From: a virus
IMG/VR virus record: IMGVR_UViG_3300013233_000137
Location: 5,053-69,052 of that record
Direction: 5' to 3' (one strand)
DNA length: 64,000 nucleotides
This document shows positions 1 through 63,177 of this stretch, piece by piece; the stretch's first letter is position 1; the number at the start of each line of letters is the position of its first letter. The translations under genes were made by a program, and so were the position numbers. The notes under the pieces are model-generated. The model saw only the letters and a list, made by a program, of their open reading frames with translations. It did no database searches and was not told the origin of the DNA.

Positions 1-89
1 GCCTGGAACTTTAGTCCAATAGCGGCCTCGATATCCACCTCAATAGGTACATTCCATTTCTTAATCATCATTTCTCCTGATTTGGTAAA

Positions 90-296
90 TCACTCTATCT
101 CAAAAATATTTTCCTGTGGAAAACACTTCAGCCAAACTTTCCCGAGCCTTTCATTGTATCTAAAAGCTGGACACCAGTTCCCGCACATAATCTTGCGGTT
201 CTTCTTATGAGGCTGGAATGGACACATGAAAGGTAAGTAACGCTCCTTTGCCAACATCGCTTTAGTCGCTTCATAATCATCGTCATATATTTTCAT
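90..296 (-). CDS. Small Cys-rich protein, paralog of 24589..24780
   Basis: Shares MCGNWCPxF...CxPQE with 24589..24780; its TGA stop lies in the palindrome at 78. Confidence 0.7.
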   Translation of the reverse strand: MKIYDDDYEATKAMLAKERYLPFMCPFQPHKKNRKIMCGNWCPAFRYNERLGKVWLKCFPQENIFEIE

Positions 297-721
297 CTCT
301 CAAACCTCACGGCTATGGGCCTCACGGCTTTATATCCCTCTTTCCAGTAGCAATGGTACATTCTGCGCCCTGGCTCAAAGTAACGCACCAACAGATTAGT
401 TACTTCACCATCCTTATACACATATCCGATGAGTTTGAACCTTGGGGCAATGTCAAGTCTCGACTTTTTGCCCTGATATGAAAATTGTGCTAGGCCATTC
501 CTCCATTCAATCGGACAATCCACGTAATCAGACTCCATCTCCGGCTCTTCAATTGTCCAGTCATTGAGCGTAAAATCACGGATGCAAACTCGTGTACCCT
601 CGTCTTTCCAGCGTAGTTGCCCCTCTAGGTAGACAACTGCTTCTTCCATTTCTCCATCATGAATATGCTTTATTATTTTACCATTATCTAACGCCTCATA
701 CGCCTCTGCTAATGTACTCAT
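293..721 (-). CDS. Hypothetical protein
   Basis: ORF; start moved to MSTLAE after an AGGAGA RBS; ATGA overlap with next gene. Confidence 0.65.
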   Translation of the reverse strand: MSTLAEAYEALDNGKIIKHIHDGEMEEAVVYLEGQLRWKDEGTRVCIRDFTLNDWTIEEPEMESDYVDCPIEWRNGLAQFSYQGKKSRLDIAPRFKLIGYVYKDGEVTNLLVRYFEPGRRMYHCYWKEGYKAVRPIAVRFER

Positions 722-755
722 TTCATTTCTCCTTGGCCATTGATTTAGTAAATCA

Positions 756-989
756 TTAATCCATATATCCAACACCCTCTTCCTGCTCAATCAGCATATA
801 CCAAGTTCCTTCACTGGCTACGCGTCCACCTCCCGCCAGTATCCACTTCCAAGGGTCACTGGTTCGAGGTACTATACCAGTAGCTTTGAGTTCTTTGACG
901 TTGGGTTTGTGACTCCATGCCGCAACAAAGTACTTTCCGAACTGGTCGTATTCGTTCTCTTCACGTAACAAGACCCAGAGTGTAGCCAT
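756..989 (-). CDS. Hypothetical protein
   Basis: 77-aa ORF in a tightly packed operon. Confidence 0.65.
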   Translation of the reverse strand: MATLWVLLREENEYDQFGKYFVAAWSHKPNVKELKATGIVPRTSDPWKWILAGGGRVASEGTWYMLIEQEEGVGYMD

Positions 990-990
990 T

Positions 991-1167
991 TCATTTATCC
1001 TTTCTCAACCTGTTCCAGATTTTGATTGCCTTTTTTGGCGTACTCCGAAAAGGACCACATAACGCACACTCAGCCTCGCGGCATCGTGCGTAATATGATG
1101 TATCAATACCGCCGATACATACCTCAGTGTATTTGGCCCCACACACCGGACACTTTTTAATCTTCAT
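991..1167 (-). CDS. Lar-like restriction-alleviation zinc-ribbon protein (58 aa, not in ORF track)
   Basis: Hand translation MKIKKCPVCG...RCREAECALCGPFRSTPKKAIKIWNRLRKDK fits the CPxCG...C..C...AxxxWNxR pattern; ATGA overlap with 1164..1415. Confidence 0.6.
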   Translation of the reverse strand: MKIKKCPVCGAKYTEVCIGGIDTSYYARCREAECALCGPFRSTPKKAIKIWNRLRKDK

Positions 1168-1415
1168 TTTTCATCCTCCTGCTCCACCTCAACGACACAA
1201 ACCTCGTTTTCCAGCTTAACAGTCTTGTATTTCTTGTCGGGATCAAGTTCAAAAACCGTGCATAAATCTTTCCAAAACTCTTCCCTCTGCTTTTCAATTT
1301 CGACAAGCCGATTGCTGTAATAGTCCATGGCTTGCATAAACACTCTCTGCGCTGCAAGTTTATCCCTGCCGACAGATTGCATCCAATCAATTTGCCTCGC
1401 TGATAATTTTTTCAT
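1164..1415 (-). CDS. Hypothetical protein
   Basis: 83-aa ORF with ATGA overlaps. Confidence 0.65.
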   Translation of the reverse strand: MKKLSARQIDWMQSVGRDKLAAQRVFMQAMDYYSNRLVEIEKQREEFWKDLCTVFELDPDKKYKTVKLENEVCVVEVEQEDEK

Positions 1416-2049: not shown

Positions 2050-2192
2050 TTCTTCTCCTAAAAAGCTCAGCGGCTGGCCGGGATTTCTCATTCAGCATAC
2101 TGCTTTTGTGAGCACCAAATCCACGGTAAATCCTCCATGCTGAATGTCGCAGCCGCCAAGCAAAGATTGATTTACTAAATCACTTATTCTCT

Positions 2193-3020: not shown

Positions 3021-3807
3021 TAGGTGGTAGCTCCTGATTTAGTAAATCAATATAGCAAGAGATAAACAGGGCAGCTACTTGTGGCACTATAGCATTGCCG
3101 TATGCAGCAATTTCAGATGAATATCTGGGTACCCCATAAGCCACTGGATGAAGGCCGGATTTAGTTGGGCGGAGTTTTCCATCTCGACATTTAAGCCAGT
3201 CACAATTATACCAAGAATTTGGCGTGGAAGGGAGTCTAATCTTTTTTGCTTTATCCAATAACTGGTATTTATATTGTCCTTCCAATCTCTTGCACAAGGA
3301 GTTATCCATCCTTTCAGCAATAAACCAGAGTCTGGATCTTTTATGTGGCGCTCCGATACTTGCAGCGCATATATCCACCGCCGCAATGGCGTAGCCTTCA
3401 TCTTCCAAGTTAGTCGATACAATATCGAACCATGCGAGCCCACCCTTCGACGCAACTTGCTCGCCAAAGATGATTGGAGGTAAGCACTTCTTGATGAGAT
3501 CGTACCAGATAGGCCACAAGTGTCTTTCATCTTTAACTCCTTTCCTTTTTCCTGCCCTACTAAAAGGTTGACAAGGGCAAGAACCTGTCCATACCGGGAT
3601 ATTTGGCCAGTTAGCCATTCGTAATGCTATACTCCACCCTCCTATTCCAGCGAAAAAATGACATTGCTCATAATGGATTAAATCTTTAGCTTTGACATCT
3701 AATATACTTCTATTATCTATTACGCCTGGTTTGATAACATTAGCTTGAGCAAGATACCGTAAAGCTGCTGAACATTTGAGGTTGTTCTCATTGTAATATG
3801 CTGCCAT
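3004..3807 (-). CDS. C5 cytosine DNA methyltransferase (alpha polypeptide)
   Basis: Motif I FFAGIGG, IV GSCPCQPFS, VI GEQV, VIII PHKRSR, X GNAIVP. Confidence 0.92.
   Translation of the reverse strand: MAAYYNENNLKCSAALRYLAQANVIKPGVIDNRSILDVKAKDLIHYEQCHFFAGIGGWSIALRMANWPNIPVWTGSCPCQPFSRAGKRKGVKDERHLWPIWYDLIKKCLPPIIFGEQVASKGGLAWFDIVSTNLEDEGYAIAAVDICAASIGAPHKRSRLWFIAERMDNSLCKRLEGQYKYQLLDKAKKIRLPSTPNSWYNCDWLKCRDGKLRPTKSGLHPVAYGVPRYSSEIAAYGNAIVPQVAALFISCYIDLLNQELPPNATDL
3087..3530 (-). CDS. Nested alternative-frame ORF, candidate methyltransferase beta polypeptide
   Basis: WITPCARDWKD and motif-IX-like QLNPAFIQWLMGYP; true start uncertain. Confidence 0.6.
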   Translation of the reverse strand: MKDTCGLSGTISSRSAYLQSSLASKLRRRVGSHGSILYRLTWKMKATPLRRWIYALQVSERHIKDPDSGLLLKGWITPCARDWKDNINTSYWIKQKRLDSLPRQILGIIVTGLNVEMENSAQLNPAFIQWLMGYPDIHLKLLHTAML

Positions 3808-4054
3808 GGCTCTCCAATTCCTGATTTAGTAAATCAATAATTGCCATAAGGTCCTCATCCTTGCCTTCGGCAAGGCCATGTCGCGTCTCCCTGATCAATG
3901 TTTTGATACTAAGGATATTGCATTCATCTTCGGCTTCCGCGAGATGACCAACAGCTACCCACTTATGAAGTGGGTAGCCTTTCGGAACCTCGCAAAGTAG
4001 CACAAGGGCTTGGGCAACGTGCTTCAAGGCACATTCCAAACAGTGTTTTCTCAT
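3788..4054 (-). CDS. Hypothetical protein
   Basis: ORF from MRKHCLEC, GGAGG RBS. Confidence 0.6.
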   Translation of the reverse strand: MRKHCLECALKHVAQALVLLCEVPKGYPLHKWVAVGHLAEAEDECNILSIKTLIRETRHGLAEGKDEDLMAIIDLLNQELESHGSILQ

Positions 4055-4947: not shown

Positions 4948-4999
4948 TGGCCTTGGCCTTGGCCTCGGCCTTGGCCTCGGCCTTTGATTTAGTAAATTA
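4948..4999. repeat. (T[T/C]GGCC)n microrepeat ending in a palindrome variant
   Basis: tggccttggccttggcctcggccttggcctcggcctttgatttagtaaatta. Confidence 0.85.
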
Positions 5000-5520: not shown

Positions 5521-5615
5521 GGCCATTGATTTGGCCTACGGCCTTTGATTTGGCCCATGGCCTTTGATTTGACCTCGGCCTTTGATTTGACCTCGGCCTT
5601 TGATTTAGTAAATCA
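5521..5615. repeat. Half-site array: TGATTT at 5527, 5546, 5565, 5583, then full palindrome at 5601
   Basis: 18-19-bp units such as GGCCTTTGATTTGACCTC. Confidence 0.9.
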
Positions 5616-7210: not shown

Positions 7211-7446
7211 GTTCTCCTTATCGCAATTTCTCCTGAATGAAATTGACTTACTAAATCAAATTCTTCTTGATACTCACAGATTACAGCTGGGAGCCCTGTA
7301 TCTGGACCACTGAAATACCTGGCCAAATATCCCATGCCATCAACACTACTACCGTCGATAGCCGTGAACTCAATATCCTGGCTCTCCAAGACCTCTTTCA
7401 ACTCCTGACAAGCTCCACACATTGCTCTGGTTATTATCGTCATCAT
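7204..7446 (-). CDS. Glutaredoxin/NrdH-like protein
   Basis: TRAMCGACQELKEVL (CxxC) and cis-Pro-like LPAVI; 80 aa. Confidence 0.75.
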   Translation of the reverse strand: MMTIITRAMCGACQELKEVLESQDIEFTAIDGSSVDGMGYLARYFSGPDTGLPAVICEYQEEFDLVSQFHSGEIAIRRTW

Positions 7447-8174
7447 AGTCCTCCTTGCAGATAAGAACAGATCAGCTCACAAATCGGTGTATACTCTATA
7501 ACCGGGTCCCCACGCCTGAAGTACATCTTGTTCGGCCTATTCTTGGCAGGCCAAGATCCTGGTGCTCTTTGACTGAAGGCCACTGGGTTGGTGGTCTTCT
7601 GTACTTCTCCTCCACTCATCTTCGGCCCAGGAAAGTTGCCCTCCCACTTCTCGCCATATATCCAGAGATAGAAGGGGTTATCATAGGCCAACCATTTCAT
7701 AGAGGCCGGTGGACGCTTCCTCAGAACCATATAGGCCATGAATATGCTATTCATATGTTGATTTAGTAAATCAAACCTGTTCAACCAGCCGAATAGCCAA
7801 CCAAACTTCACCATGAACTCCGCTTGTGGTATTGGATTGAAGGGTAGAGGCAGCTCTGTATACTCACTGGCCCACCATAGTGCCGCCGGTCCAGCAAAGG
7901 ACTGCTTCTTACGTTTTATCCACCATCCGTCACAGGGCTCCCAGTCAGGACCAACTTGAATAGGGGCGAAGTTCCTGGCCTCATCACTAAGCTCAAGGAG
8001 CTGGGTTATCCACTTCTTTGAAGCTGACCAAACTACTTTATCCCCTACTATATGTGCAGCTCCACATAGCATTGAGATGTGGAATAAGCCGTCGATATAG
8101 TTAGAATACCTGAAGGGTATCACCTGACTATATCCGGTCTTGAAACTGCTTAGAACCTTTTCCCTAATACTCAT
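7443..8174 (-). CDS. Hypothetical protein
   Basis: 243-aa Trp-rich ORF with ATGA overlaps. Confidence 0.7.
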   Translation of the reverse strand: MSIREKVLSSFKTGYSQVIPFRYSNYIDGLFHISMLCGAAHIVGDKVVWSASKKWITQLLELSDEARNFAPIQVGPDWEPCDGWWIKRKKQSFAGPAALWWASEYTELPLPFNPIPQAEFMVKFGWLFGWLNRFDLLNQHMNSIFMAYMVLRKRPPASMKWLAYDNPFYLWIYGEKWEGNFPGPKMSGGEVQKTTNPVAFSQRAPGSWPAKNRPNKMYFRRGDPVIEYTPICELICSYLQGGL

Positions 8175-8683
8175 GGTGCCCTTTCCATATCAAAAGGAAA
8201 ACGTCTACGAATAGCTTCTATCTCCTTCGCTGTGAAGATGTGCTTACGCTTGGCCGCAGTGATGTTGAGATGTGGTAACTTATAGTGAGTAACATCGAGG
8301 CACTCAAGTAGAATGTCAAAGTCTCGTTGGAAATGGTAGTAGTTAATAAGCTGTATACAATCCTCCAAATGGAAATGTATACGATCCTGGAAATAGGTAT
8401 GCCGATATTGATTTATGAAATCAAGCATACCATATCGCCACCATTCACGATTCAAGTAATACCAGGACGTTATCACGTCGAAGATACATCGAGTATTGGA
8501 TACGATGATCTCCCCTCCTATAATGGCCTTCTGGACTTCTTCACTACCATATCTAATATGGTGTTCCTCCGTTACGATGGCTTCGGGGTAGATATCATTG
8601 AGAGCCGTTTGAACGGATGTCGAGCCTGTGCGCGGTGTACAGAGGTAGACCACTTTCCCTGGGACAATCAGTGCCATTGGCAT
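8171..8683 (-). CDS. Sulfotransferase-family protein
   Basis: PAPS 5'-PSB-like TPRTGSTSV and 3'-PB-like RCIFDVITSWY. Confidence 0.7.
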   Translation of the reverse strand: MPMALIVPGKVVYLCTPRTGSTSVQTALNDIYPEAIVTEEHHIRYGSEEVQKAIIGGEIIVSNTRCIFDVITSWYYLNREWWRYGMLDFINQYRHTYFQDRIHFHLEDCIQLINYYHFQRDFDILLECLDVTHYKLPHLNITAAKRKHIFTAKEIEAIRRRFPFDMERAP

Positions 8684-8788: not shown

Positions 8789-9850
8789 TTAATCCTGACG
8801 CGTTCTCCAGAATCGCGCTTCTTGCGGGATGCCATCTTTAGTTACTCCTCTATATCTAAACGTTATAATCATGCCACGTGGGAAGTGGACCGCTTCCACT
8901 TCTTCAGGGCATATCGTCTCGGGGTGCTCAATAGCCCACTCCGTGTCATTGAGCACTCGCTCCTCATCAGTGAATCCTGATAATTCAAGCCTCTTACCAT
9001 TGGAGAGCTTCACGATCATGGCCCCCATTTTCCCAAGGAGCTTCGACCCCTTATTCGTTTGCCTACCAGTGATGTAGCCGATAACCGTACCTTCCGCGTC
9101 CTCGGTCTTCTTCATCTTAAGCAGATCATGGCTTCTAATGGACCCCCACATGCTTTCTGGTTTGCGAAGCATGACACCTTCTCCTCCGGCTTCGCTAATC
9201 TCGTCAAGTGTTTGATTTACTAAATCAAGGGCCGCTGAACTCTGGAACGGTAGTTGCATTTGTGGATGTGGCCTGGTAACAGCACTTCTGGCGTATTTCT
9301 GTAGCAGCCTATAGACACTTGTGAAAGGCGTCCCCCGCTTCGGGATGTAGACCAAGCTCGAGATATCCGTATCCTCATAGATCCATTTCTGAATATCGGT
9401 GAATCGCTTTTGGAAGTTGATTACATCTATTAGTCCATCGTCGAAGACCACATCCAAACAGGGCATATCAAAGGCCCGAAGGGTGATGCCATCCCAATTA
9501 ACGCCATGGGTATTCTTGACCTTGCTCATGAGATCCTGACGCTTCATATTTCCATAAAGTTCCCCGTCTAAGGGAACTTTGGGCATAAGATCCAGATAAT
9601 CAGGAGGAGCATGGATAACATTGCCATAGCGTGACCACAAGCCAGTAGCAATTGGTTTAGCAACATACCGTTCATCCTTATCCGTATTAGCCCAAGGCAC
9701 ATTCTCCTTGAGCATCCCGCGAGTTAACCCGCCGTCCCAAAAGCATCTCATACCGTCGAGCTTCTCCGATAGGAACCAACCACCTAGACTTGGGGCTCTA
9801 GGCCCGGCTTTATAGGTTTGGGCGAGCATCAGGAATTGTCGTTTAGCCAT
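8789..9850 (-). CDS. ATP-dependent DNA ligase
   Basis: SEKLDGMR (KxDG), LDGEL, AFD, EGVMLR, LKMK. Confidence 0.92.
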   Translation of the reverse strand: MAKRQFLMLAQTYKAGPRAPSLGGWFLSEKLDGMRCFWDGGLTRGMLKENVPWANTDKDERYVAKPIATGLWSRYGNVIHAPPDYLDLMPKVPLDGELYGNMKRQDLMSKVKNTHGVNWDGITLRAFDMPCLDVVFDDGLIDVINFQKRFTDIQKWIYEDTDISSLVYIPKRGTPFTSVYRLLQKYARSAVTRPHPQMQLPFQSSAALDLVNQTLDEISEAGGEGVMLRKPESMWGSIRSHDLLKMKKTEDAEGTVIGYITGRQTNKGSKLLGKMGAMIVKLSNGKRLELSGFTDEERVLNDTEWAIEHPETICPEEVEAVHFPRGMIITFRYRGVTKDGIPQEARFWRTRQD

Positions 9851-10404: not shown

Positions 10405-10443
10405 CCTGTTCTCCCTGGGCAGGGCCGCCTCTGATTTAGTAAA

Positions 10444-11253
10444 TCATTTGAAATACCATTTCCATTTGGAGGGGAACTTTTCCATCCGCTTGGTAATGAG
10501 TTCTTTCTCTTCCCCAGGGATAGAACCTTGCCAACCGAAGTATAGCTCATGGGAATGATCATACCAAATTACGTTGTCAATTGGTACATGATTATCAATA
10601 AGCCACTTAAAGATATTATACTCCATTTTAGCATCTTCGACCTTCATTGAGAGACACTCTAACTTCTTTTCATAACTTGCTTCAAGATGTTTGAGTTCGG
10701 CCTCTTTACTAATAGCCAAGTAACGATCAATAAACTCCTTTGAAGGCATCTTATCCCTCTTGACCTTGTACTCATTGACTATAGCAATAAGTTGTAGAAG
10801 TGGCAAGTCGGCTTCCTTTAGGTACGAGACACCTAAACAAGCCTCGCACCACTCCCCTTCCTTACGATCTGTATATTGCTTTCCGCAATAACCACACCTT
10901 ACTGTTTGTGAACGGGTCTCAACCATCTCAGATGTTTGTTCTAACCAGTAACCGGTGTAGGTTAGGCCATGAGAATCACGGTAGTGCCGCCAGTCAAAGA
11001 TACGTGCACCAGATTCAGCGATGCAACCATCTACAGTATTCCATTGATCTTGGAATAGGAACAAGGGATCGAGCTCGACATCTTTGCCGTCATACTCTTT
11101 AACTTGTGCATGAAACTCATAGTGACTCGGATCCATATCATAGGCGTCGAACTCATGTAGGCCCATGCCTTTGAGTTTGGTACGCAATTCTTTATACCCT
11201 TCTTTGGTTGCGAAGTCGAACCAATGTAGCTTAGTCCTTAAGATTGTTTTCAT
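10444..11253 (-). CDS. Hypothetical protein with CxxC pairs
   Basis: 269-aa ORF; stop codon lies in the palindrome at 10432. Confidence 0.7.
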   Translation of the reverse strand: MKTILRTKLHWFDFATKEGYKELRTKLKGMGLHEFDAYDMDPSHYEFHAQVKEYDGKDVELDPLFLFQDQWNTVDGCIAESGARIFDWRHYRDSHGLTYTGYWLEQTSEMVETRSQTVRCGYCGKQYTDRKEGEWCEACLGVSYLKEADLPLLQLIAIVNEYKVKRDKMPSKEFIDRYLAISKEAELKHLEASYEKKLECLSMKVEDAKMEYNIFKWLIDNHVPIDNVIWYDHSHELYFGWQGSIPGEEKELITKRMEKFPSKWKWYFK

Positions 11254-11303
11254 AACGTTCTCCTGATTGATTTAGGCGGCTCTGCCGCCATTGATTTACT
11301 AAA

Positions 11304-11507
11304 TCACACATGTAGAAAAAGTCTTTGTCCTTTGGACTCGATCCAATAGGATGCGACATTGGAGTAACAGGTGGCATATACCCTATACCATCTGTTACTA
11401 TGGAAAGCCTTTTGATTGGTGGCTATCCTTTTCCCATATCCATAGTGAGTACGAGGAGCCGGATCGGCCTTTATCTCTGTATCGTATGGCAAATATTTGA
11501 TGCCCAT
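11304..11507 (-). CDS. Hypothetical protein
   Basis: ORF; stop codon lies in the palindrome at 11292. Confidence 0.6.
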   Translation of the reverse strand: MGIKYLPYDTEIKADPAPRTHYGYGKRIATNQKAFHSNRWYRVYATCYSNVASYWIESKGQRLFLHV

Positions 11508-12180: not shown

Positions 12181-12830
12181 ATCATAGCCACCTCCTTTAG
12201 AATTTGTCCAATACGTGAAGCAGTCAATCCAATCTTGCTCGCAATCTCTCGGTCAGTATATCCTTCCATCTTCATTTGTACTATCTTGGCTTCCCGTTTT
12301 GATAAATGATTTAGGAAATCAGTTACCACTAACTTGTCATCATCAACAGTAAAAGGTAATATAGATATAGGCCCACTATATACATAAGCTGTATTATCTT
12401 CGTCCTCCTTACCATACTCCATACTAAAGTAGGAATGGAAATAGTGCTTAACATCTGAACTTCTCGGTATATGGATTAGCTTATTCTCTCTGAGGAAGTT
12501 CGCAATGTGACCATGTATATGGCTGACGATCCATCCCGATATCCCATTGTCCTTCAGCCGATCGACTTTGCCTATGGCATCGAGAATACCGCAATACATC
12601 TCTGCTAAGATGTCCTCTCGACTATCAGGGAAGTAAGATGCGTATCTTGCTGCTATTGTCACGCCTAGACGCATGTGTCCCATGATAATAATGTCTCGGG
12701 CATGTATGTCGCCCTCACGTAGCTTTTTGATTTGGTAAATCAATTCTTGTTCTGGGAGTGGCGATGGTAGGTTCCCCAGTTCGTGCGCTATGCCATATTT
12801 CTTATGTCCCTTAATACCCCCTAAATACAT
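12153..12830 (-). CDS. Sigma-70 family sigma factor-like protein
   Basis: GDIHARDIIIMGHMRLGVTIAARY (region 2.1-like); HTH LSKREAKIV...YTDREIASKIGLTASRIGQI. Confidence 0.82.
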   Translation of the reverse strand: MYLGGIKGHKKYGIAHELGNLPSPLPEQELIYQIKKLREGDIHARDIIIMGHMRLGVTIAARYASYFPDSREDILAEMYCGILDAIGKVDRLKDNGISGWIVSHIHGHIANFLRENKLIHIPRSSDVKHYFHSYFSMEYGKEDEDNTAYVYSGPISILPFTVDDDKLVVTDFLNHLSKREAKIVQMKMEGYTDREIASKIGLTASRIGQILKEVAMIWERKHGLK

Positions 12831-12872
12831 TCTATTCTCCTGGTTGATTGATTTGGTAAATCACTGCTCTCT

Positions 12873-13145
12873 AATTGATTTGTGTAATTGATTTCCTATA
12901 TTGAGTAAATCAAAATTCTGAATCATCCACACCTGGTTGACATAATAATGTAAAAGGTAAATACATTATTATTATACCACAATAACCGTAATATGCAACT
13001 AAAAAATTTTATAATTCGTGTAACCTATTGGTATATAAGGAATAGAAAAATAAAATTTTACTTGACAAGATTTTGGAATAATAATTGCATATTGTTTTGA
13101 TATCTTGATTAAATCAAAATTCTAAATCAATTACGTAAATCAATT
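12873..13145. promoter_or_regulatory. AT-rich control region bracketed by inverted compound half-site elements
   Basis: 12873-12926 and 13091-13145 are imperfect inverted repeats of TGATTT/AAATCA half-sites at 13-bp pitch. Confidence 0.75.
12971..12998 (-). promoter_or_regulatory. Sigma70-type promoter for the leftward accessory operon
   Basis: Minus strand TTGCAT-16 bp-TATAAT with TG extension. Confidence 0.65.
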
Positions 13146-13557
13146 AAGAACTCTCTATAATCCAGAACTCCTCCCAGCCATATTTGATTTGATAAATCAA
13201 TCCAGAAGGATCATAGATTTGTTTACCATCCCAAGCAACGACATGCTGAGATTCCGCATACATGAATATACCGGTATGGCTTAAAGCCTCATAGCAAATT
13301 GGAATGTCAATAACTTTGCCATTGATATATGTCTTAGCGAAGAACGGCATTGCCCAATATCCCTTCTTATATATTACAGGTAGGAGGTCTTCGATCTGGA
13401 TACCACGATACTTCCTAGGTCCAATTGCATTGGGCCAGGTCACCTCATGTGGGTCATGGTCTATTTGATTTCGTAAATCAGAAACCTGTATATCCATACA
13501 CATTGCAACCGATGTCAACACACATCCGTATACCTCGCTTTGTTTTTGAAGCTCCAT
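13144..13557 (-). CDS. Peptidase C39-like cysteine protease
   Basis: Q.....GC (QKQSEVYGCVLTSVAM), HVVAWDG, IYDP. Confidence 0.65.
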   Translation of the reverse strand: MELQKQSEVYGCVLTSVAMCMDIQVSDLRNQIDHDPHEVTWPNAIGPRKYRGIQIEDLLPVIYKKGYWAMPFFAKTYINGKVIDIPICYEALSHTGIFMYAESQHVVAWDGKQIYDPSGLIYQIKYGWEEFWIIESS

Positions 13558-21671: not shown

Positions 21672-21754
21672 TTGAGCTCCTTGAGATTAGTATGGCCTGG
21701 GACCATCACTAGGCCCCAGGCTGATTTAGTAAATCACTTCCAAGCCATACAATG

Positions 21755-22930: not shown

Positions 22931-22984
22931 TTTGTTTCTCCTATATTAAAACGACTATCAATCTACATAGATTGATTTGATTTA

Positions 22985-24254: not shown

Positions 24255-24283
24255 TTGACTTACTGCTTTGAAATGCCTATAAT
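24255..24283 (+). promoter_or_regulatory. Rightward sigma70-type promoter (primase operon)
   Basis: TTGACT-17 bp-TATAAT. Confidence 0.75.
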
Positions 24284-41630: not shown

Positions 41631-41653
41631 AGTATCTCCTTTGATTTACTAAA

Positions 41654-44427: not shown

Positions 44428-44514
44428 CTTTGCTCCTTGCGGCAGGGCCGCTTGATGCTGGCCTTGCCAGCTTTGATTTACTAAATCAATGGCCACGGGC
44501 CAAATCAATGGCCG

Positions 44515-50684: not shown

Positions 50685-50724
50685 CCCTCCCAGAAATTGA
50701 TTTACTAAATCAATCCTGGGAGGG
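50685..50724 (-). terminator. Hairpin after the tail tube gene with the palindrome as apical stem
   Basis: CCCTCCCAG-(palindrome at 50698)-CTGGGAGGG then ATTTT on the minus strand. Confidence 0.6.
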
Positions 50725-54682: not shown

Positions 54683-55104
54683 TACACCACTCCAAGAGAG
54701 TCTATTAAAGCTATTTTTGATATGTCAGACATCACATTCATATGAGGATATTTTCTTTTATATTCCTTACGTATCTTCTCGCTCCTTGAGTAGGCTACAT
54801 ACGGAATATTCGTATCTTCTATCTCCTCTACTACTCTTTGATTTACTAAATCAATATTAACTAGGGCACAAATTATATCTTTTTGATTGCGGCGTAAAAC
54901 AAAGATCGCATCTTCATTGGTATCGGCACATTTACTATCCATATTGCGGTAGCTAAGAGCCTTCCTTAAATAGGAACTTACGCTCCAATCATTATCTACT
55001 ATAAGGCAAAATCCTTCTGTGCAAGTCATCTGACGAATTATTACACGCGTATTTTGAGCCTTCAAGAAATAGGAGTCCACGATCTTTTTATCAAGCATCT
55101 TCAA
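54682..55104 (-). CDS. Degenerate response-regulator receiver-like protein
   Basis: CLIVDND, ALVNIDL, IPYVAYS spaced as in the REC fold. Confidence 0.5.
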   Translation of the reverse strand: MKMLDKKIVDSYFLKAQNTRVIIRQMTCTEGFCLIVDNDWSVSSYLRKALSYRNMDSKCADTNEDAIFVLRRNQKDIICALVNIDLVNQRVVEEIEDTNIPYVAYSRSEKIRKEYKRKYPHMNVMSDISKIALIDSLGVV

Positions 55105-56108: not shown

Positions 56109-56231
56109 TTTTGATTTGGCCTCGGCCTTCTTTTGATTTGGCCTTGGCCTTCTTTTGATTTGGTAAATCAATGGCCGCGTAGCGGCGTAAATCAATGGGC
56201 CGCGTAGCGGCGTAAAGAAACGCCGCGTAGC
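56109..56231. repeat. Half-site array around TGATTTGGTAAATCA (56156)
   Basis: TGATTT at 56112, 56134, 56156; AAATCA at 56165, 56189; GC-rich spacers. Confidence 0.88.
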
Positions 56232-57670: not shown

Positions 57671-58480
57671 CTATATTTTACTGAGGTCAATCTTGCCCTC
57701 TTTACGGGCCTTAAGATATTCCTCTGTAGTCATCTTCGCGGGGTTTACACTACCTCCGCCAGTATCACCCTGAGTATTCATTCCCAAGCCACCTTTGACA
57801 TTGGATTTGAAGAGGTTACCATACTTCTCAGGCATCTTCTTCATTACTTCCACTGCCTCATTGACTTTAAGATCCAACTCAGTATCTTTACCATCTTGAT
57901 CTTTACCAGTGATCTTGACCCGTGAGACCAAGTTCCCTGTGGGATTACCGTCCTTATCCAATTCATCAGTTAAGGTCGTATTTGGACGCAAGATCGCAAC
58001 AATTTGTTCAGGGGAAAACGCATCACTTGCAACAGCTGCATCCGTTATAGTTCGTTGAATAGTCTCTCCAGTGTATCTATTTTGGAGAGACTCTAATTGA
58101 TTTTGTAAATCAGAAATCTTCTTCTCATTCTCGGCTTTGATTGCTTCCTCATTCTGTTTGGCCAGCTCCTCTTTGGTCTTGAGGCTATCTGAGAGCTCCT
58201 TAACACGCTTCTGAAGGGTGATCTTCTCTTCAGCGGTTAGAGAACCTGACTTGGCCTCTGAGAGTTGTCCTTCAAGCTCTGTAACCTTCGTCTGCAAATT
58301 ACGACGATTCTTTGCCATAATTGCATTGACTTCATCCTGAGTGAAGGTCTTAACTGGCGGATCTCCTGCTGGCGGATCTCCTGCTGGCGGATCTCCTGCT
58401 GGCGGATCTCCTGCTGGCGGATCTCCTGCTCCAGTATCCTCACCATACCACAAACGGCTCCTCGGCATTTCCTCGTACAT
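57671..58480 (-). CDS. Head scaffolding protein
   Basis: KTFTQDEVNAI, coiled coil, C-terminal MTTEEYLKARK; upstream of the capsid gene. Confidence 0.85.
   Translation of the reverse strand: MYEEMPRSRLWYGEDTGAGDPPAGDPPAGDPPAGDPPAGDPPVKTFTQDEVNAIMAKNRRNLQTKVTELEGQLSEAKSGSLTAEEKITLQKRVKELSDSLKTKEELAKQNEEAIKAENEKKISDLQNQLESLQNRYTGETIQRTITDAAVASDAFSPEQIVAILRPNTTLTDELDKDGNPTGNLVSRVKITGKDQDGKDTELDLKVNEAVEVMKKMPEKYGNLFKSNVKGGLGMNTQGDTGGGSVNPAKMTTEEYLKARKEGKIDLSKI
58354..58428. repeat. 15-bp tandem repeat x5 (AGDPP)
   Basis: CTGGCGGATCTCCTG x5. Confidence 0.95.
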
Positions 58481-58937: not shown

Positions 58938-60703
58938 TTCGCACTCCCACGGGTTTTATCTTTAATAACTACATCTTGTGTCTTGTCCTTCTGGGACTGG
59001 GTCTTCTCCAAAACTGGAGAAGAAGGATTGGCATCCAGAGCTGCTACACCTCTGGCAGCCGCATTAGTTTGAGCAAGGACTATACGGGCTGCACGTTCCG
59101 CATGTTCAACCTTGGCCTTCTCAACCTCCCCTTCGGGGTAACCCTTAGCCTCAGATGCAGTCTCAACACTTAATAGTCCCTGCTCAATATCTTGAGATAT
59201 CGTATCGGGATCAAGAACCGGAATATCGGAGTTATCGACCTCACCATATATGGTATTAAGGGTCTCTACACCAACTTTATCGGTAAGAAGTGCATGAGCA
59301 ATATCCTTTGAAAGTTCCTTCTGATAGGTCTTCGACCCCACTTGGCTACGCAGTTTGGCTTTCGACTCTGCCTCCACAACTCGTTGTGCGTCGGTTTTAA
59401 GACTATAATGAGTTGGGTACTTCACCGTAGCAGATCGTCTTGAGGACTCGTACATCGCCCATAGTTCCGCTATGCGATTCTCCCCAGATTCCAATTCCTG
59501 TCCAATGTAACTCAACCCAGCCTCCAATGACTGGGAATCCATGGCCTTCGACTCGGCACTAGCTTCACGCCTCGGGATAAGGTTTGATACGGCGAGGTTT
59601 ACGAGGAGCTTGATATCCCGTTTCAACTGCTCTTGCTTCTCCATGCTGACTCGGAGAGGCTCTGGACTGGGACTAATATAGGCAGGTCTCTCGGTGTTGA
59701 TTGGATAACGACGCCCCCGTGTCGCACCCGTCACTAACTCCTGGGCCTTACCTGTTGCCGCAGAAGCCGCAGTTCCCGGTTGATTTACTAAATCAGTTTC
59801 CGAACCATCGGCATTGTAGGTCGGGCTCGAATATGTATTATTCTGACGTAGATGACCGGAGACTCGCCTTGGGTCATACTGCTCTGTATAGAATGGGAAA
59901 TTGGATTTGAAGCTATAGTTCATATCCGCCGAGGCGAGGTTCAGAAGTGATATCTGAATATCAGCCACGTCTGTTAGGAGGGACTGACTTAACTCCATAG
60001 TAAGGAATGGGATATTAGGGATGTTGAGTACTCTCTCCGATATCTGCTCACCGTCCTTATCATACAAGATCGCCAATACGCCTTCGGAGACTAACCGCAG
60101 ATAACGGTACTGCTTGACCAATTTGATTGGGAGCTGTGTTAGGGGATCGGTCTCATACACATGGTCTCTAAGTAGTATCGCAGCAAACTGCCCGGGGTTG
60201 TCATCTAAATACGACCAAGAACGAATGTCTTGAGCCTCATAGGTATAGATATAAGGGTTCTTACCTATCTGCTCAAGCTGTGTGGCTCCGGGCTCATTAG
60301 TCATATCGACGAAGATCCCTACCTTCCCGATGGAGAGCAAACCTGGAAGGACGCTTGCACCAATAAAATTATTCATGGTACTTGACTTCCGGTCCACGCC
60401 TTTGTCTCTACCAGCCACGGCATTCATATAGCTCGGAGTGCCCTCGCGACGGGTGATGTCCACCATCCTCTGGAAGATCGAGTTCTTGATCTCGTTGATA
60501 GCCGCCTTAGCGAAGGCTGGGACATAGGAGATCTTCTTACGGTTAGAGAAATCCCACTTGTCCTCCCGCTGAGAGAACTTCTGAAGGTACTCCTCAAGGA
60601 AGGCATGACCACCCTCATAGGCTAAGGCATACTTATCCCAGAGTTCTATCATCTTCTCGTAAGTGGGGTGTTTAACTTGGTAGATCATTCTATATCCTAT
60701 CAA
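58934..60703 (-). CDS. Portal protein
   Basis: 589 aa following the terminase; HPTY, YEGG, SAESK. Confidence 0.82.
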   Translation of the reverse strand: MIGYRMIYQVKHPTYEKMIELWDKYALAYEGGHAFLEEYLQKFSQREDKWDFSNRKKISYVPAFAKAAINEIKNSIFQRMVDITRREGTPSYMNAVAGRDKGVDRKSSTMNNFIGASVLPGLLSIGKVGIFVDMTNEPGATQLEQIGKNPYIYTYEAQDIRSWSYLDDNPGQFAAILLRDHVYETDPLTQLPIKLVKQYRYLRLVSEGVLAILYDKDGEQISERVLNIPNIPFLTMELSQSLLTDVADIQISLLNLASADMNYSFKSNFPFYTEQYDPRRVSGHLRQNNTYSSPTYNADGSETDLVNQPGTAASAATGKAQELVTGATRGRRYPINTERPAYISPSPEPLRVSMEKQEQLKRDIKLLVNLAVSNLIPRREASAESKAMDSQSLEAGLSYIGQELESGENRIAELWAMYESSRRSATVKYPTHYSLKTDAQRVVEAESKAKLRSQVGSKTYQKELSKDIAHALLTDKVGVETLNTIYGEVDNSDIPVLDPDTISQDIEQGLLSVETASEAKGYPEGEVEKAKVEHAERAARIVLAQTNAAARGVAALDANPSSPVLEKTQSQKDKTQDVVIKDKTRGSAK

Positions 60704-62306
60704 AAATGTCCTGGCTACCTGCCATCTCCGCCGCGAAGTTCAAGGCCACCTCATTATATACACGTGAATGAGTGTAATGATCGGCACTCGACCCCTCTAC
60801 ATACCTCGCTACGGGGTTGCCATTGCCGTCTTTCTTGTAAATCCGCACTGGAGCCTTAATCTGATCGCGATACTCAATGCCGGTATCCACTGGGAGGGTT
60901 ATCGACTTGTTCCGAAAACGGCTCAAGGCGACATCCATCCAGGATGTTCTATCTACTGTAACGGTATGCTCCATCTCCTTGTGAATCGAGATTTGTTTAC
61001 CTTGTATCCCTTGTCCATAGAAACAGGTTTTCACATATCCGTTGAAATTCTGAGCGAACTCGAAGCTTTTCCGGCGTTCAGGCTGGGCATCGATAACCGC
61101 GTACTGCACGGCCCATTTCCTCATAAGGGCGTTCAGTTCATTAAATGTCCTCACTTTACCGAACTCCAAAACCTTGCATCGGGCTTCGATGTTCAGGTCA
61201 TCTGTGACCATATTGGCCGGGAAACGCCACTCATCGACCTCATAGTTAATCCAAGTACCAACGTCAACACCCATAGTCACGATACCTGTGGGGGTTGACA
61301 TCTGGTTCTTATGTTCTCCAATACATTGATCCAGGTCACCATCCGTGACACGCGCACCATCAATAATATGCGTTAGGCCGAGCTTCGAGTTGAAGAACTC
61401 CTGTTCATCGGCGACGTTATTCAGGGACCCCTCATACGCCTTCGATAACTCCGCAGGCGTTATCATCATGCTGTAGAGCTGGTTGATATAGAATCCACGG
61501 TCATCGGCTTCTTGGGTAGGCATCCAGAAGCCATCTGCTAGCCATTCTTGTTTGGTTTCATGGGACAGCGTGCTTTTGCACGCTGTGCAGATCAGATGGC
61601 TATCCTTACCATCGAAGACTATGGAATCCGGATACTGGAGTTCTATGCTCCTCGAACAATGAGGGCATCTAAACATGAAATGTTCTTGTGTAGATGTCTT
61701 GAACCGCTTATTAATGCCGTGGTCATCTATACTCGGGGTCGAAATGCCCCAAGTTTGTTTCTCCAATTGTCCACTTGTGCGCTCGAAGACCAGCGGTATA
61801 TTGTCTTGGGTCATCTCCTCGATCTCGTCGAGGATTATGAGTCCCACTGGTACGCTCTTCAAACCTGCCCGTGACCGACTGCCACGTATGTAGATGTTCG
61901 CAGTTCCAGCTCTCTTATGGCCTATGTTCTTAGTGTCCGTGAATAACGTCTGGAGGTAAGGGCTTAACTCCACCGCCGGGTCGAAACGGGCAGAGGAGAA
62001 GTCACTGGCGTCAGGCGTTTTCGCAGGTAGAACATAGAGCACTGAAACCGCGTTTATACCGACCTCGTAGAATACCTTATTAAGAACTGTCTCAGTATAA
62101 CCCATCTGGGCCGCTTTCTGGCCCCATACAAATGGGCTTTTGGCGTCGTGCATCTCCCGTAACCAAGGGTGATGCTCAAACGTCCAAGGACCGGAGAACT
62201 GACCGCCCATTACGCGGTACGTTTCGGCCCATTTCGAGCAACTGGTTATCGACCTCTTAGTGAGACCTGCCGCGATACGCGACACGAATTGCTCGGCGAT
62301 GTCCAT
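60690..62306 (-). CDS. terL: Terminase large subunit (lambda gpA-like)
   Basis: KAAQMGYTE, LDEIEE, ISTP, CPHC, GVDVG, DHYTH. Confidence 0.92.
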   Translation of the reverse strand: MDIAEQFVSRIAAGLTKRSITSCSKWAETYRVMGGQFSGPWTFEHHPWLREMHDAKSPFVWGQKAAQMGYTETVLNKVFYEVGINAVSVLYVLPAKTPDASDFSSARFDPAVELSPYLQTLFTDTKNIGHKRAGTANIYIRGSRSRAGLKSVPVGLIILDEIEEMTQDNIPLVFERTSGQLEKQTWGISTPSIDDHGINKRFKTSTQEHFMFRCPHCSRSIELQYPDSIVFDGKDSHLICTACKSTLSHETKQEWLADGFWMPTQEADDRGFYINQLYSMMITPAELSKAYEGSLNNVADEQEFFNSKLGLTHIIDGARVTDGDLDQCIGEHKNQMSTPTGIVTMGVDVGTWINYEVDEWRFPANMVTDDLNIEARCKVLEFGKVRTFNELNALMRKWAVQYAVIDAQPERRKSFEFAQNFNGYVKTCFYGQGIQGKQISIHKEMEHTVTVDRTSWMDVALSRFRNKSITLPVDTGIEYRDQIKAPVRIYKKDGNGNPVARYVEGSSADHYTHSRVYNEVALNFAAEMAGSQDIFDRI

Positions 62307-62322
62307 CGTTGTCGGCTCCTCG

Positions 62323-62464
62323 GCCTGTCGGGCTTTGATTTGCCCTGTCGGGCTTTGATTTGCCCTGTCGGGCTTTGATTTGCCCTGTCGGGCTTTGATT
62401 TAGTAAATCAAAGGCCGGGGACCGGCCTAAATCAAAGGCCGGGGACCGGCCTAAATCAAAGCCC
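62323..62464. repeat. Symmetric half-site array between terS and terL
   Basis: 20-bp unit (G)CCCTGTCGGGCTTTGATTT x4, the last running into the core at 62396, then 24-bp unit TAAATCAAAGGCCGGGGACCGGCC x2. Confidence 0.93.
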
Positions 62465-62502
62465 ATCGGGCATGGCCGGGGACCGGCCGGCGCTAGCGCC
62501 CA

Positions 62503-62997
62503 TCAGGGCGCCACGGTTATCCGGTTCATGGCCGCCGTTATCTGGGCCGCGACCTTGGCTACCGCTTCCTCGTCCTGAACCTCGGCTACGATGATCTGGA
62601 TAATCTCGTCAGCCAACTGGATTGCCTTGTTACGGTCAAGCAACTGACCCAGATTTATATCCAATTTGTTGGTGCTCATGACCAGGCGTTCAATACTATT
62701 GACTAATGTGCTAATCTGGGTGCTTGCCAGAAGCAGATCGTGCTCATCCTTACAGCGATTCAAGCATGTCTCCAGCACCATACGCAGAACTCCAACCTCT
62801 TCACTCAGGGTTTTCAGGGCGGAGTTCGTAGATAGCTCCTCAAAACGGCTTTTGAACCGCGTCAACTGGTAGTTGAATACTTTTTTCCTTTCCTTCTGCT
62901 CCTTCTCAATGGTGTTATGTGTCTCGCAATACTGGAAGCCTTCGGGGGCCTCGTTTTTGCACGGTCCGAACTGGGTAGTGTATTGGCAGAGACTCAT
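62503..62997 (-). CDS. Terminase small subunit candidate
   Basis: Upstream of terL; N-terminal C...C...YCETH; helical body. Confidence 0.6.
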   Translation of the reverse strand: MSLCQYTTQFGPCKNEAPEGFQYCETHNTIEKEQKERKKVFNYQLTRFKSRFEELSTNSALKTLSEEVGVLRMVLETCLNRCKDEHDLLLASTQISTLVNSIERLVMSTNKLDINLGQLLDRNKAIQLADEIIQIIVAEVQDEEAVAKVAAQITAAMNRITVAP

Positions 62998-63043
62998 AAT
63001 GTGACTTTCGGCGAAGAAAAAAAGAAGAAAACTCCTCTAATTT

Positions 63044-63072
63044 ATAGTAGGTGTAAAAAGTGGAAAAATCAA
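63044..63072 (-). promoter_or_regulatory. Promoter for the packaging/structural operon
   Basis: Minus strand TTGATT-17 bp-TACTAT with AT-rich upstream element. Confidence 0.5.
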
Positions 63073-63177
63073 GGAAAATTTTTATTTTTTTCTTCGGCGG
63101 AAAGCTTGTTTCGGGGTTGATTTAGTAAATCAGACAGCCATATAACCCACCCTCCCACCCCTTGGCGTCGGGCACCA

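Follow-up and report, generated by a model that had tools for sequence, protein, structure and literature searches.

A dispersed palindromic word in an uncultured siphophage with two orphan ParB proteins, and its possible reading by a ParB/KorB-type protein

KorB of plasmid RK2 is described as a cytidine triphosphate (CTP) clamp that loads at OB sites, slides up to 1.5 kb and represses promoters (PMC11790492), and ParB of Pseudomonas aeruginosa is reported to occupy half-parS sites genome-wide (PMC5961200, PMC10419367). Among phages, the Cluster O mycobacteriophages (Corndog and its relatives) are reported to carry more than 30 copies of a 17-bp dyad, 5'-TGTTCGGNNNCCGAACA, of unknown function and with a dimeric binder predicted (PMC4351075), and Cluster A phages to carry stoperators, tens of repressor sites across the phage genome, many of them near gene boundaries (PMC9283540, PMC6550527). 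A 2025 survey describes orphan ParB-fold proteins as common on mobile elements and phages, and the sections of it cited here mention no cognate phage-wide sites (PMC12704722); a 2026 paper ascribes the activation of thymine dioxygenases to phage ParBs that lack a DNA-binding domain (PMC13229309). Here we describe a 15-bp palindrome, TGATTTASTAAATCA, that recurs throughout a 64-kb stretch of phage DNA (the window; bases 5053-69052 of the 69,052-bp IMG/VR virus record IMGVR_UViG_3300013233_000137, labelled G000), which also encodes two ParB proteins, ParB1 and ParB2. In the literature searched, genome-wide palindromes cognate to orphan phage ParBs are nowhere described.

The sites are real, selected at the DNA level, evenly spread and phage-specific, and they turn over at a kept density. 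As to what reads them, we favour a phage ParB, ParB2 rather than ParB1, for which the word would be a predicted docking site; judged from genes and sequences, we give this reading a probability of roughly one half. ParB loading sites had already been proposed in the preliminary description of this DNA. The selected, symmetric and phage-specific signal, the two real and orphan ParBs in a conserved module, and the finding that methylases are not required all speak for that proposal; co-variation between word and protein is weak for ParB2 and absent for ParB1.

A palindrome selected at the DNA level

IMG/VR classes G000 as linear and 75% complete. In the window, the exact pattern TGATTTASTAAATCA has 33 matches, from 741-755 through 63118-63132, and none of 100 dinucleotide-preserving shuffles contains any match (expectation 0.00). 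The relaxed pattern TGATTT-N3-AAATCA matches 46 times, first at 78-92 (shuffle mean 0.02, maximum 1). Copies with one arm base changed start at 4985, 7244 and 16894, one with two arm bases changed starts at 26201, and five weaker candidates with three mismatches are possibly chance. The whole record holds 37 exact sites, 48 with at most one mismatch and 54 with at most two, a density of one site per 1.3-1.9 kb, and the accessory, replication and structural modules all contain them. The manual count of 33 exact copies in the preliminary description, and its estimate of about one site per 1.3 kb across modules, thus agree with pattern matching under a shuffle control; its 12 further N3 copies should read 13, its five arm-mismatch copies are an approximation of the 3 + 1 stronger and five weaker candidates above, and its assumed AT content of about 56% should read 54.4%, the value for the whole record (45.6% G+C).

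With its flanks, the consensus is a 17-mer, TTGATTTA-S-TAAATCAA, whose outer T/A pair is present in 58% of the G000 sites and in 78% of those of a relative, G001. The layout is 7-1-7. Its central base can be G or C, without orientation bias: on the plus strand of this mostly minus-strand genome, 21 sites have G and 16 have C. An RNA hairpin formed by the word would have a stem of 6 A-U-rich pairs.

The distribution of the word relative to genes reveals selection on the DNA itself. Read from the sequence, two of the three motif frames contain stop codons on each strand, and the sole open frame reads D-L-[V/L]-N-[Q/H]. Of the 54 sites (two mismatches or fewer), 35 lie at least 30 nt inside a called open reading frame (ORF), gene calls being greedy longest ORFs and therefore crude, with counts near gene ends approximate. 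ORFs with internal sites include those for PolA, the SNF2 helicase, the primase, the ligase, the radical-SAM enzyme, the tape measure and the portal. Among the 25 DL[VL]N[QH] peptides of the called ORFs, 23 are spelled with the exact motif codons and the other two are one base off, when codon usage predicts 1-2%; selection for the peptide is thereby ruled out. A promoter or terminator element as the main role is likewise ruled out, by the 35 of 54 sites deep in ORFs and by the symmetry of the word. At some gene ends, T-rich half-sites double as the U-tract after GC hairpins.

The sites are also more evenly spaced than chance would place them. Their spacing is 1.3-1.5 kb, and its coefficient of variation (CV) in G000 is 0.59-0.65, whereas sites placed at random give about 0.97; no more than 0.04% of 5000 simulations are as even, and over both G000 and G001 the simulated fractions run from 0.0002 to 0.0012. 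For G001 the CV is 0.67-0.68 when sites with up to one or two mismatches are counted (simulated fraction 0.0012 for the one-mismatch set), and 0.96, not more even than random, for exact sites alone. Coverage, not position, is under selection, and protein sequences have been rewritten to carry the sites.

This is borne out by relatives that share the word, two of which, at no more than 65-70% nucleotide identity, hold it at an unchanged density. IMG/VR was scanned with the 15-mer and the 17-mer; our statements cover the matches listed, and more motif-bearing contigs may exist. Among these matches, G001 (84,413 bp, classed as complete with a 114-bp terminal repeat) carries 60 N3 sites and G002, an 8-kb fragment, carries 4, while all other contigs matching the 15-mer have single copies. 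Single copies of either word were treated as chance because, of the loci analysed, only G000-G006 encode a relative of either ParB. G001 has 40.3% G+C and aligns to G000 in conserved genes only, over 20.4 kb in total at 64-76% identity (one 74-bp piece at 86%), and 45 of the 106 G000 ORFs have a blastp match in it. A third genome, G003 (59.7 kb, 63% complete), uses the relaxed word T[G/A]ATTT-N3-AAAT[C/T]A and has 53 ATTT-N3-AAAT sites. When intragenic sites in genes with an ortholog were compared, the same aligned residue carried a site in G001 for 10 of 24 G000 sites, and in the reverse direction for 10 of 21; in the comparison with G003, 11 of 25 G000 sites and 12 of 24 G001 sites kept their position. 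At unshared sites the ortholog has a different peptide, such as EYAAK for DLVNQ in PolA. Given so few shared positions and the kept site number in G001, it is the density that is conserved and not the positions.

Other comparisons carry less information. Relatives found through the large terminase, TerL (L126-L128, 46-51% identity), are without the motif, and being 14-22-kb fragments they are uninformative. No ParB-less motif carrier occurs among G000-G003, the motif-bearing records identified (one of them the 8-kb G002), a set that could not have revealed one. Apparent 'different palindromes' in the distant two-ParB phages G004 and G006 trace back to a tandem repeat of 9 bp at a contig end and to coding repeats of collagen-like type: long Gly-X-Y stretches at 789-1540 of G004 and at 44500-45000 and 63150-63710 of G006, which mimic iterated GC-rich palindromes in simple counts. 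The tandem repeat, TTGCAAGTC/TTGCAAGAC in about 12 copies, ends G004 in the way that a run of about 12 copies of the 7-bp unit ACCCAAG forms the left end of G000 (record bases 1-84, upstream of the window), an exact palindrome following at record position 89, 4 bases after the run. These terminal repeats could be real genome ends or assembly break points.

The ParB proteins, the family of words and candidate readers

Both ParBs are full ParB_N plus helix-turn-helix (HTH) proteins by Pfam and by matches to solved structures, which bears out the two ParB proteins claimed earlier. ParB1 scores 44.7 bits on PF02195 and 23 on PF17762; ParB2 scores 36.2 and 52, respectively, and 25.9 bits on PF08535, the KorB HTH model. 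The two match Noc, Spo0J and ParB in the PDB (E 1e-13 to 1e-17), the best solved relatives of ParB2 being the Noc chains 7ol9 and 7nfu (E 1e-17 and 2e-16). By alignment, ParB2 keeps IAGFRRF and RENLLRKDL opposite the GERRW and ENLQR of Noc and ParB. ParB1 is degenerate at both places (DGLQRF, with GLQR for GxRR, and ATNLHK, with TNLHK for ENLxR) and has a Lys/Ala-rich C-terminal tail. Identity to the orthologs in G001 and G003 is 71% and 70% for ParB1, and 62-65% for ParB2.

A ParA (PF13614) and a tyrosine integrase (PF00589) were each found in 0 of the 3 records G000, G003 and the complete G001, when 14 of 14 control genomes scored for each; hence, the ParBs are not a partition system. In alignment, both ParB N-termini also lack the ParA-binding motif LG[KR]GL in the form given in PMC12704722. 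Orphans in this sense, the ParBs accompany the phenomenon wherever it was examined.

Two sigma-70-like promoters, recognised as consensus matches only, diverge between the methylase-ParB1 operon and the primase operon, the leftward operon comprising the methylase, ParB1, SNF2, ParB2 and PolA. Each promoter's leader contains a compound half-site array of 45-54 bp with a pitch of about 13 bp (23884-23928 and 24310-24363), and full sites lie beyond the arrays at 23859, 23684 and 24391. Similar arrays bracket the intergenic region 12830-13144, and lone half-sites end GC hairpins at several gene ends. The reader of the word probably also controls both divergent promoters. With sites and arrays in the leaders and both ParBs in the leftward operon, the arrangement looks as would be expected for autoregulation.

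A protein collection holds 78 relatives of ParB1 (E<=1e-10), of which 21 were aligned for a search of IMG/VR; this gave 80 loci with flanks of up to ±10 kb. These were scanned for inverted 4-mers with gaps of 1-7 (1792 tests per locus, threshold p<1e-9). A dispersed dyad passed the threshold in 22 of 78 loci (L251-L328) and in 17 of the 40 long loci. GATG-N4-CATC occurs in L258, L259, L271, L280 and L296 (19-35 copies per 13-21 kb), GATT-N5-AATC in L286, L287, L290, L291, L300, L317 and L318, and GATT-N4-AATC in L282 and L304. Two spacings coexist in L282 (21 copies of GATT-N4 and 14 of N5) and in L271 (34 of GATG-N4 and 14 of N5). Further words are GATC-N4-GATC (17 copies, L298), TGATA-N4-TATCA (L275, with GATA-N4-TATC dispersed 9 times, 10 raw, and the looser TGAT-N6-ATCA 15 times), TGAGTTA-N-TAACTCA (L251, core 20 times), CTCTA-N-TAGAG (L306, 7 exact copies, and 21 of the looser CTCT-N3-AGAG), GCTC-N4-GAGC (14 copies, L260) and GGTT-N5-AACC (11 copies, L329).

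Several loci scored as palindrome-negative are not devoid of words. L301/L302 carry GAT-N5-ATC 46 times against 6.7 expected, and L268 and L279 carry GAT-N6-ATC 33 and 35 times. Other loci have lone asymmetric 8-mers without an inverted partner, on both strands: CAGTATCA (17 copies, L311), GCTAATCA (14, L272), CAAAATCA (15, L253) and GCTTATCA (15, L288). What the words have in common is a half-site that ends in ATCA. Its density is about 0.7-0.8 per kb in lone-8-mer lineages and, with the looser dyads, as high as about 2 per kb; its strict palindromic arrangement is confined to some lineages. In L288, an iteron-like cluster at 9050-9190, within 1 kb upstream of ParB1, holds six copies of GCTTATCA at 13- or 32-bp steps, and could be a nucleation site or an origin.

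One gene module accompanies these words in all of the long loci. In the 40 long loci, ParB1, ParB2, SNF2 and the primase were each found 40 times, a 210-aa protein 38 times, and PolA and the exonuclease 37 times each. The ParB2 figure is a raw tblastn count that may include cross-matches of ParB1; true ParB2-type genes are present in 50 of 83 sources, absences falling mostly where the contig ends. Within the ±10-kb windows, no gene separates motif-positive from motif-negative loci. In the module common to all motif-bearing relatives examined, the ParBs are the only recognisable sequence-specific DNA binders. The G000 methylases lie outside it: among the two families searched, PF00145 and PF02086 match in G000 only, neither the complete G001 nor G003 having a match, and the G000 methylases have no blastp match in G001. 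The D12 N6-adenine methylase of G000 stands directly upstream of ParB1. A methylase target, or a methylase-driven palindrome, was considered as the general cause and rejected, since G001 and G003 keep the motif without either family.

To determine which ParB may be the reader, partial Mantel tests were run on 17-20 loci whose motif classes were assigned by hand. Distance in the ParB2 HTH region correlates with motif class at r=0.40 (p=0.0004) and, once the remainder of the protein is accounted for, at partial r=0.27 (permutation p=0.017); for ParB1 there is no signal at this sample size (partial r=0.07, p=0.27). In Caulobacter ParB, positions 173, 179, 184 and 201 are reported to reprogram parS/Noc-binding site (NBS) specificity (PMC7383237). 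We mapped these onto our proteins through a phmmer alignment to 6t1f and tested them against the fourth base of GATx, with hand-curated classes, since assigning this base automatically by counting TGATx 5-mers was too noisy (56 of 71 sources unassigned). In ParB2, Tyr182 corresponds to G201; its column takes rank 22 of 270 (z=3.1, p=0.006), with Lys in each of the 3 GATG lineages and Thr in nine GATT lineages. The counterpart of A184 is at rank 58, and those of R173 and T179 are without signal.

A number of observations weigh against a ParB reader. In a scan of 166 windows of 40 aa across PolA, ParB2, SNF2, the 210-aa protein, ParB1 and the primase (17 loci, concatenated distance controlled), the top windows fall in the PolA N-terminus and SNF2 (partial r 0.24-0.34). 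The ParB2 HTH windows rank only 24-30, so that the ParB2 signal is not exceptional and may reflect shared ancestry, and the ParB1 HTH windows rank 126-163. The four specificity equivalents of ParB1 rank 47, 172, 231 and 233 of 317, its G201 equivalent being Asn in 32 of 34 lineages whatever their motif. Moreover, the GATG lineages with a ParB2 form one clade, the classes are hand-curated and the tests ignore the tree. L296 shares GATG-N4 with the L258 clade but has a different ParB1 recognition helix, and the motif-positive L282 and the palindrome-less L272 have near-identical ParB1 HTHs. Both ParBs are present in 40 long relatives, of which 23 have no palindrome at p<1e-9; the distant two-ParB phages G004 and G006 have none either, and at least four palindrome-less relatives carry the lone asymmetric 8-mers, which clamp loading at a two-half parS does not predict. 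Finally, about 60% of the ORFs are unannotated and leave room for an unrecognised DNA binder. Co-variation of motif and HTH, suggested in the preliminary description as a check, is thus weakly positive for ParB2, though unexceptional among module proteins, and negative for ParB1. Hence, ParB2 is weakly favoured as the reader, and ParB1 is disfavoured as the one that sets specificity.

If ParB2 is the reader, the following course of events may be envisaged. The two reading heads of the docking protein would each recognise a half-site of about 7-8 bp; the symmetry of the word, the pitch of the arrays and the two tolerated spacings would fit loosely tethered heads. ParB2, the paralog with intact CTP-clamp motifs, would be the reader, while ParB1, whose nucleotide motifs are degenerate and whose tail is rich in Lys and Ala, would act as its partner or as a second layer. 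ParB2 dimers would nucleate at full sites and at the half-site arrays downstream of the divergent early promoters, close as CTP clamps and slide by about 1 kb. With the phage selected to keep one site per roughly 1.3 kb over its whole chromosome, sites this far apart would leave the entire genome covered. Such a coat would regulate transcription as KorB does, and/or organise the phage DNA or mark it as self. All of these steps, including global control, coating and self-marking, are inferred. More tentatively still, one may picture an uncultured siphophage family in which an orphan ParB pair reads a fast-diversifying half-site code, and a CTP-clamp coat controls transcription globally and tells own from host or rival DNA. 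That code may take the form of 15-17-bp palindromes, of GATN-N4/5-NATC dyads or of lone 8-mers ending in ATCA, at about 0.5-2 sites per kb by lineage (about 0.7-0.8 per kb in the clade of G000).

Instead of a ParB, another phage protein, such as a small repressor or a nucleoid-associated protein, might bind the sites in a stoperator- or Cluster O-like fashion, the ParBs being bystanders; this we consider unlikely, although several of the observations above suit it, namely that most ORFs are unannotated, that ParB co-variation is weak and not exceptional, and that 23 of 40 long ParB-bearing loci have no palindrome. A 68-aa ORF (27461-27667) is a case in point, being found in 10 of 17 motif-positive and 4 of 23 motif-negative long loci, but its detection by tblastn at E 1e-6 depends on divergence and the difference may be an artefact. 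Beyond the replication module, no such protein is conserved across the ±10-kb loci. The Cluster O phages offer a precedent in their more than 30 similar dyad repeats, whose reader is given as unknown (PMC4351075), and monomeric repressors, which are reported to read asymmetric sites (PMC9283540), would fit the lone 8-mers. On the other hand, no integrase or other sign of lysogeny appears in G000, G001 or G003, which makes a role in silencing a prophage unlikely, and the 35 of 54 sites deep in genes are palindromic, where stoperators are described as oriented and intergenic (PMC4351075).

A still less probable possibility is that the words mark phage DNA as self for a nuclease or translocase of the phage, much as Chi does for RecBCD. 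A processive enzyme, for example the SNF2 motor together with the VRR-NUC protein or the exonuclease, would then destroy word-less DNA of the host or of rival phages, and the phage's own word would tame it. Fast, lineage-specific change of words would follow from phage competition, and the words do change fast and by lineage among relatives with the same gene module, at a density of about 0.7-0.8 per kb in palindrome and lone-8-mer lineages alike. The lone asymmetric 8-mers resemble Chi-type words. The module always comes with an SNF2 helicase and an RNase_T-type exonuclease, VRR-NUC being present in 12 of the 17 motif-positive and 11 of the 23 motif-negative long loci, and SNF2 holds 5 of the 8 best co-varying windows. 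That correlation is weak, however (partial r 0.24-0.32, tree not controlled), and we know of no SNF2 protein that reads sequence. The strict two-fold symmetry and 15-17-bp length of the word in G000 are unlike Chi; Chi-like words should be oriented, but these occur on both strands; and the arrays of half-sites at the promoters suggest a regulator of the classical DNA-binding kind.

The least probable explanation, a host-factor site or a by-product of methylase-linked repair like cyanobacterial HIP1 (the subject, reportedly, of work by Elhai on HIP1 and methylases) rather than phage-encoded recognition, draws on the C5 and D12 N6-adenine methylases of G000 and on a 7-1-7 layout that recalls the boxes of the Fur family (Fur/PerR/Zur), but is opposed by G001 and G003, which keep the motif without PF00145 or PF02086, by closely related phages with different words, which a shared host factor would not explain, and by the host data. 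The latter come from one relative only, L329, a ParB1 relative on a 39-kb contig of a 3.4-Mb metagenome-assembled genome (MAG), the link between the two resting on binning only: its word, GGTT-N5-AACC, occurs 20 times on the phage contig and 60 times in the remaining 3.36 Mb, against 45 occurrences there of the reversed control. The putative host genome is therefore not enriched, host enrichment having been named in the preliminary description as a sign of a host-factor site. Of 401 genomes sampled from the phylum of that MAG, a single one contains the G000 15-mer, in one copy.

Gene content and coordinates

G000 is a siphophage, with genes for a tape measure, a major head protein, a portal and a large terminase, and for replication a PolA, an SNF2 helicase, a D5-like primase-helicase, a ligase and an RNase_T exonuclease. 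It also encodes a VRR-NUC protein, two sigma-factor-like proteins, C5 and D12 DNA methylases, glycosyltransferases and a radical-SAM enzyme. A collection of 50,697 phage records yielded no cultured relative: G000 had no megablast match in it and its primase no tblastn match, and the head protein reaches no more than 31% identity with its counterparts in Gordonia, Streptomyces and Vibrio siphophages. Neither the small ORFs close to the regulatory region nor the proteins of 210, 165 and 152 aa have a Pfam or PHROG match.

The 210-aa protein (21039-21671, minus strand) lies between ParB1 and the SNF2 helicase and recurs in 38 of the 40 long relatives. Its ESM Atlas neighbours are clusters with 13-32% PF23977 (Pam3_Gp34) members, which we take as a lead only; it is a candidate ParB partner. 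The VRR-NUC protein (13821-14168, minus strand; 115 aa, nuclease fold) is the most conserved small protein, 76.5% identical in G001, and stands beside the PolA/SNF2 module in 23 of the 40 long relatives' loci. The SNF2 ortholog of G001 (L124:1531-4338, equal to 81531-84338 of G001) has 935 aa against 641 in G000. Read by eye, the extra stretch starts with Cys, ends in His-Asn-Cys and is intein-like, with a homing-endonuclease-like middle. Since the 114-bp 'terminal repeat' of G001 cuts through this gene, it is probably the overlap of a circular assembly and not a physical end.

The sigma-factor-like proteins (12153-12830 and 2496-3020, both minus strand) match sigma-70 regions 2 and 4 below the Pfam cut-offs, the former also matching phrog_351 (RNA polymerase sigma factor, E 1.4e-21); with two such proteins, the phage probably redirects host RNA polymerase. 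A 120-aa protein (27631-27993, plus strand) matches the N-terminal domain of dATP/dGTP diphosphohydrolase, PF18909 (E 6.6e-33), a family that we take to belong to phages replacing adenine with 2-aminoadenine. Beside the tail genes, the stretch 28681-34051 (minus strand) encodes glycosyltransferases (30844-31584 and 33260-34051), the radical-SAM enzyme (29967-30896) and a SAM methyltransferase (32745-33260); in Cluster O mycobacteriophages, methyl- and glycosyltransferases are likewise reported among the virion genes (PMC4351075).

Table 1. Sites, arrays, promoters and ParB genes in window coordinates. Exact, pattern match to TGATTTASTAAATCA; variant, match to TGATTT-N3-AAATCA; sites are strandless (.).
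Feature	Position	Strand	Context or basis
Variant TGATTTGGTAAATCA	78..92	.	
Exact	741..755	.	centre G
Exact	2168..2182	.	centre C, intergenic
Exact	3035..3049	.	
Exact	3822..3836	.	
One-mismatch TGATTTAGTAAATTA	4985..4999	.	intergenic
Exact	5601..5615	.	intergenic
One-mismatch TGACTTACTAAATCA	7244..7258	.	
Exact	7759..7773	.	within 243-aa ORF
Variant TGATTTATGAAATCA	8409..8423	.	
Exact	9213..9227	.	within DNA ligase gene; aligned position same in G001
Exact	10432..10446	.	overlaps stop codon
Exact	11292..11306	.	intergenic; adjoins half-site and GC hairpin
Variant	12307..12321	.	within sigma-like gene
Variant TGATTTGGTAAATCA	12728..12742	.	
Variant	12849..12863	.	intergenic
Compound half-site array	12874..12926	.	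about 13-bp pitch, large intergenic region; read from sequence
Compound half-site array	13096..13146	.	TAAATCA x3 at 13-bp pitch
Variant	13185..13199	.	
Variant	13466..13480	.	
Exact	15091..15105	.	within PolA gene; absent from same position in G001
Two-mismatch TGATTCGCTAAATCA	16894..16908	.	one arm and one inner base changed, within PolA
Variant	17604..17618	.	directly downstream of ParB2 stop
ParB2, 298 aa	17629..18525	-	ParB_N + HTH_ParB (+ KorB HTH)
Exact	18847..18861	.	within SNF2 helicase gene
Variant	20649..20663	.	
Variant	21472..21486	.	within Pam3_Gp34-like 210-aa gene
Exact	21722..21736	.	intergenic
ParB1, 316 aa	21980..22930	-	ParB_N + HTH_ParB
Exact	22978..22992	.	between methylase stop and ParB1 start
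Exact	23684..23698	.	directly upstream of methylase start
Exact	23859..23873	.	leader of leftward operon
45-bp compound palindrome	23884..23928	.	four half-sites, downstream of leftward promoter
Sigma-70-like promoter TTTACT-17-TATAAT	23965..23993	-	10/12, leftward; consensus match only
Sigma-70-like promoter TTGACT-17-TATAAT	24255..24283	+	11/12, rightward towards primase; consensus match only
Compound half-site array	24310..24363	.	downstream of rightward promoter
Exact	24391..24405	.	directly before AAAGGAGG ribosome-binding site
Exact	25028..25042	.	within primase gene; position shared with G001
Exact	27601..27615	.	within 68-aa ORF; position shared with G001
Exact	30532..30546	.	within radical-SAM gene
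Exact	33151..33165	.	
Exact	33981..33995	.	
Exact	36250..36264	.	within 1183-aa gene; position shared with G001
Variant TGATTTGTAAAATCA	38180..38194	.	
Exact	38807..38821	.	
Exact	41642..41656	.	overlaps stop codon
Exact	44474..44488	.	
Exact	46707..46721	.	within tape-measure gene
Exact	48498..48512	.	within tape-measure gene
Exact	49515..49529	.	
Exact	50698..50712	.	
Exact	54839..54853	.	
Variant	56156..56170	.	half-sites and GC hairpins on flanks
Variant	58098..58112	.	
Exact	59781..59795	.	within portal gene
Exact	62396..62410	.	intergenic; then tandem GC hairpins each ending in half-site
Exact	63118..63132	.	intergenic

Comparison with described systems

Selection has been strong enough here to dictate amino acids in polymerase, helicase, portal and tape-measure genes. 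If a ParB does read the sites, this would be a ParB/KorB-type clamp at work in a probably lytic virus and not for partition, with a whole chromosome covered or marked at a density far above that of the described parS, NBS and OB systems. It would also supply a candidate reader and function for dispersed phage dyad repeats, those of Cluster O having stood unexplained since 2015. The diversification of the words offers a natural experiment on how DNA-binding specificity co-evolves with hundreds of cognate sites, and by means of the words, contigs of these phages can be binned and classified cheaply.

Among the systems described, Cluster A stoperators are asymmetric, oriented with transcription and intergenic, and serve the monomeric immunity repressor of temperate phages (PMC4351075, PMC9283540), whereas the sites here are palindromic and mostly intragenic, in genomes where no lysogeny genes were found. 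The dioxygenase-activating phage ParBs are described as lacking a DNA-binding domain (PMC13229309), in contrast to both G000 ParBs, which have an HTH.

The preliminary description held that KorB and SopB use far fewer sites, which is fair for KorB but overlooked the Cluster O look-alike with its more than 30 repeats (PMC4351075). Those phages are, like G000, siphophages of about 70 kb with 7-N-7 dyads genome-wide, between and within genes, and are reported to have neither integrase nor parAB, yet a protein with a ParB-like domain (PMC4351075). Their layout is 7-3-7 as opposed to 7-1-7, their sequence is another, and about one third of their sites are intragenic, compared with 35 of 54 here; the sections cited draw no link between the repeats and the ParB-like protein (PMC4351075). 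Mycobacterium phages are absent from the 18 records of the ParB1 search, and from the named groups and the 30 listed rows of the 60 ParB2 records. The resemblance is thus one of pattern only, without shown homology of sequence or protein.

Noc and its NBS sites share with the present case the lack of a ParA partner and the many dispersed palindromic sites, and the best solved relatives of ParB2 are Noc chains. The half-site TGATTTA agrees with the parS half TGTTTCA at 5 of 7 positions. Unlike Noc and parS, the system here belongs to a virus and not to a chromosome, and its palindrome is of odd length; the density of Noc sites is 40-50 times lower.

Beside the Cluster O repeats, the closest parallel is KorB with its OB sites on RK2 (IncP-1). 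Both cases involve a ParB-family HTH protein, ParB2 scoring on the KorB model PF08535, and a palindrome of odd length, centred on G or C, whose many copies are dispersed over a single replicon, some at promoters and some not. RK2 has about 12 OB sites, compared with about 50 here, most of them inside genes and of another sequence. Further differences are that G000 is a phage without sign of lysogeny, not a plasmid, that it has two ParB paralogs, and that no KorA or IncC (ParA) homolog was recognised; the clamp role here is a predicted one. The site spacing of 1.3-1.5 kb would match the sliding range of KorB, reported as up to 1.5 kb (PMC11790492). Taken together, the phenomenon is real and broader than a single phage, and is best filed as kin to the RK2 case, in which a ParB/KorB-type protein reads dispersed dyad sites.

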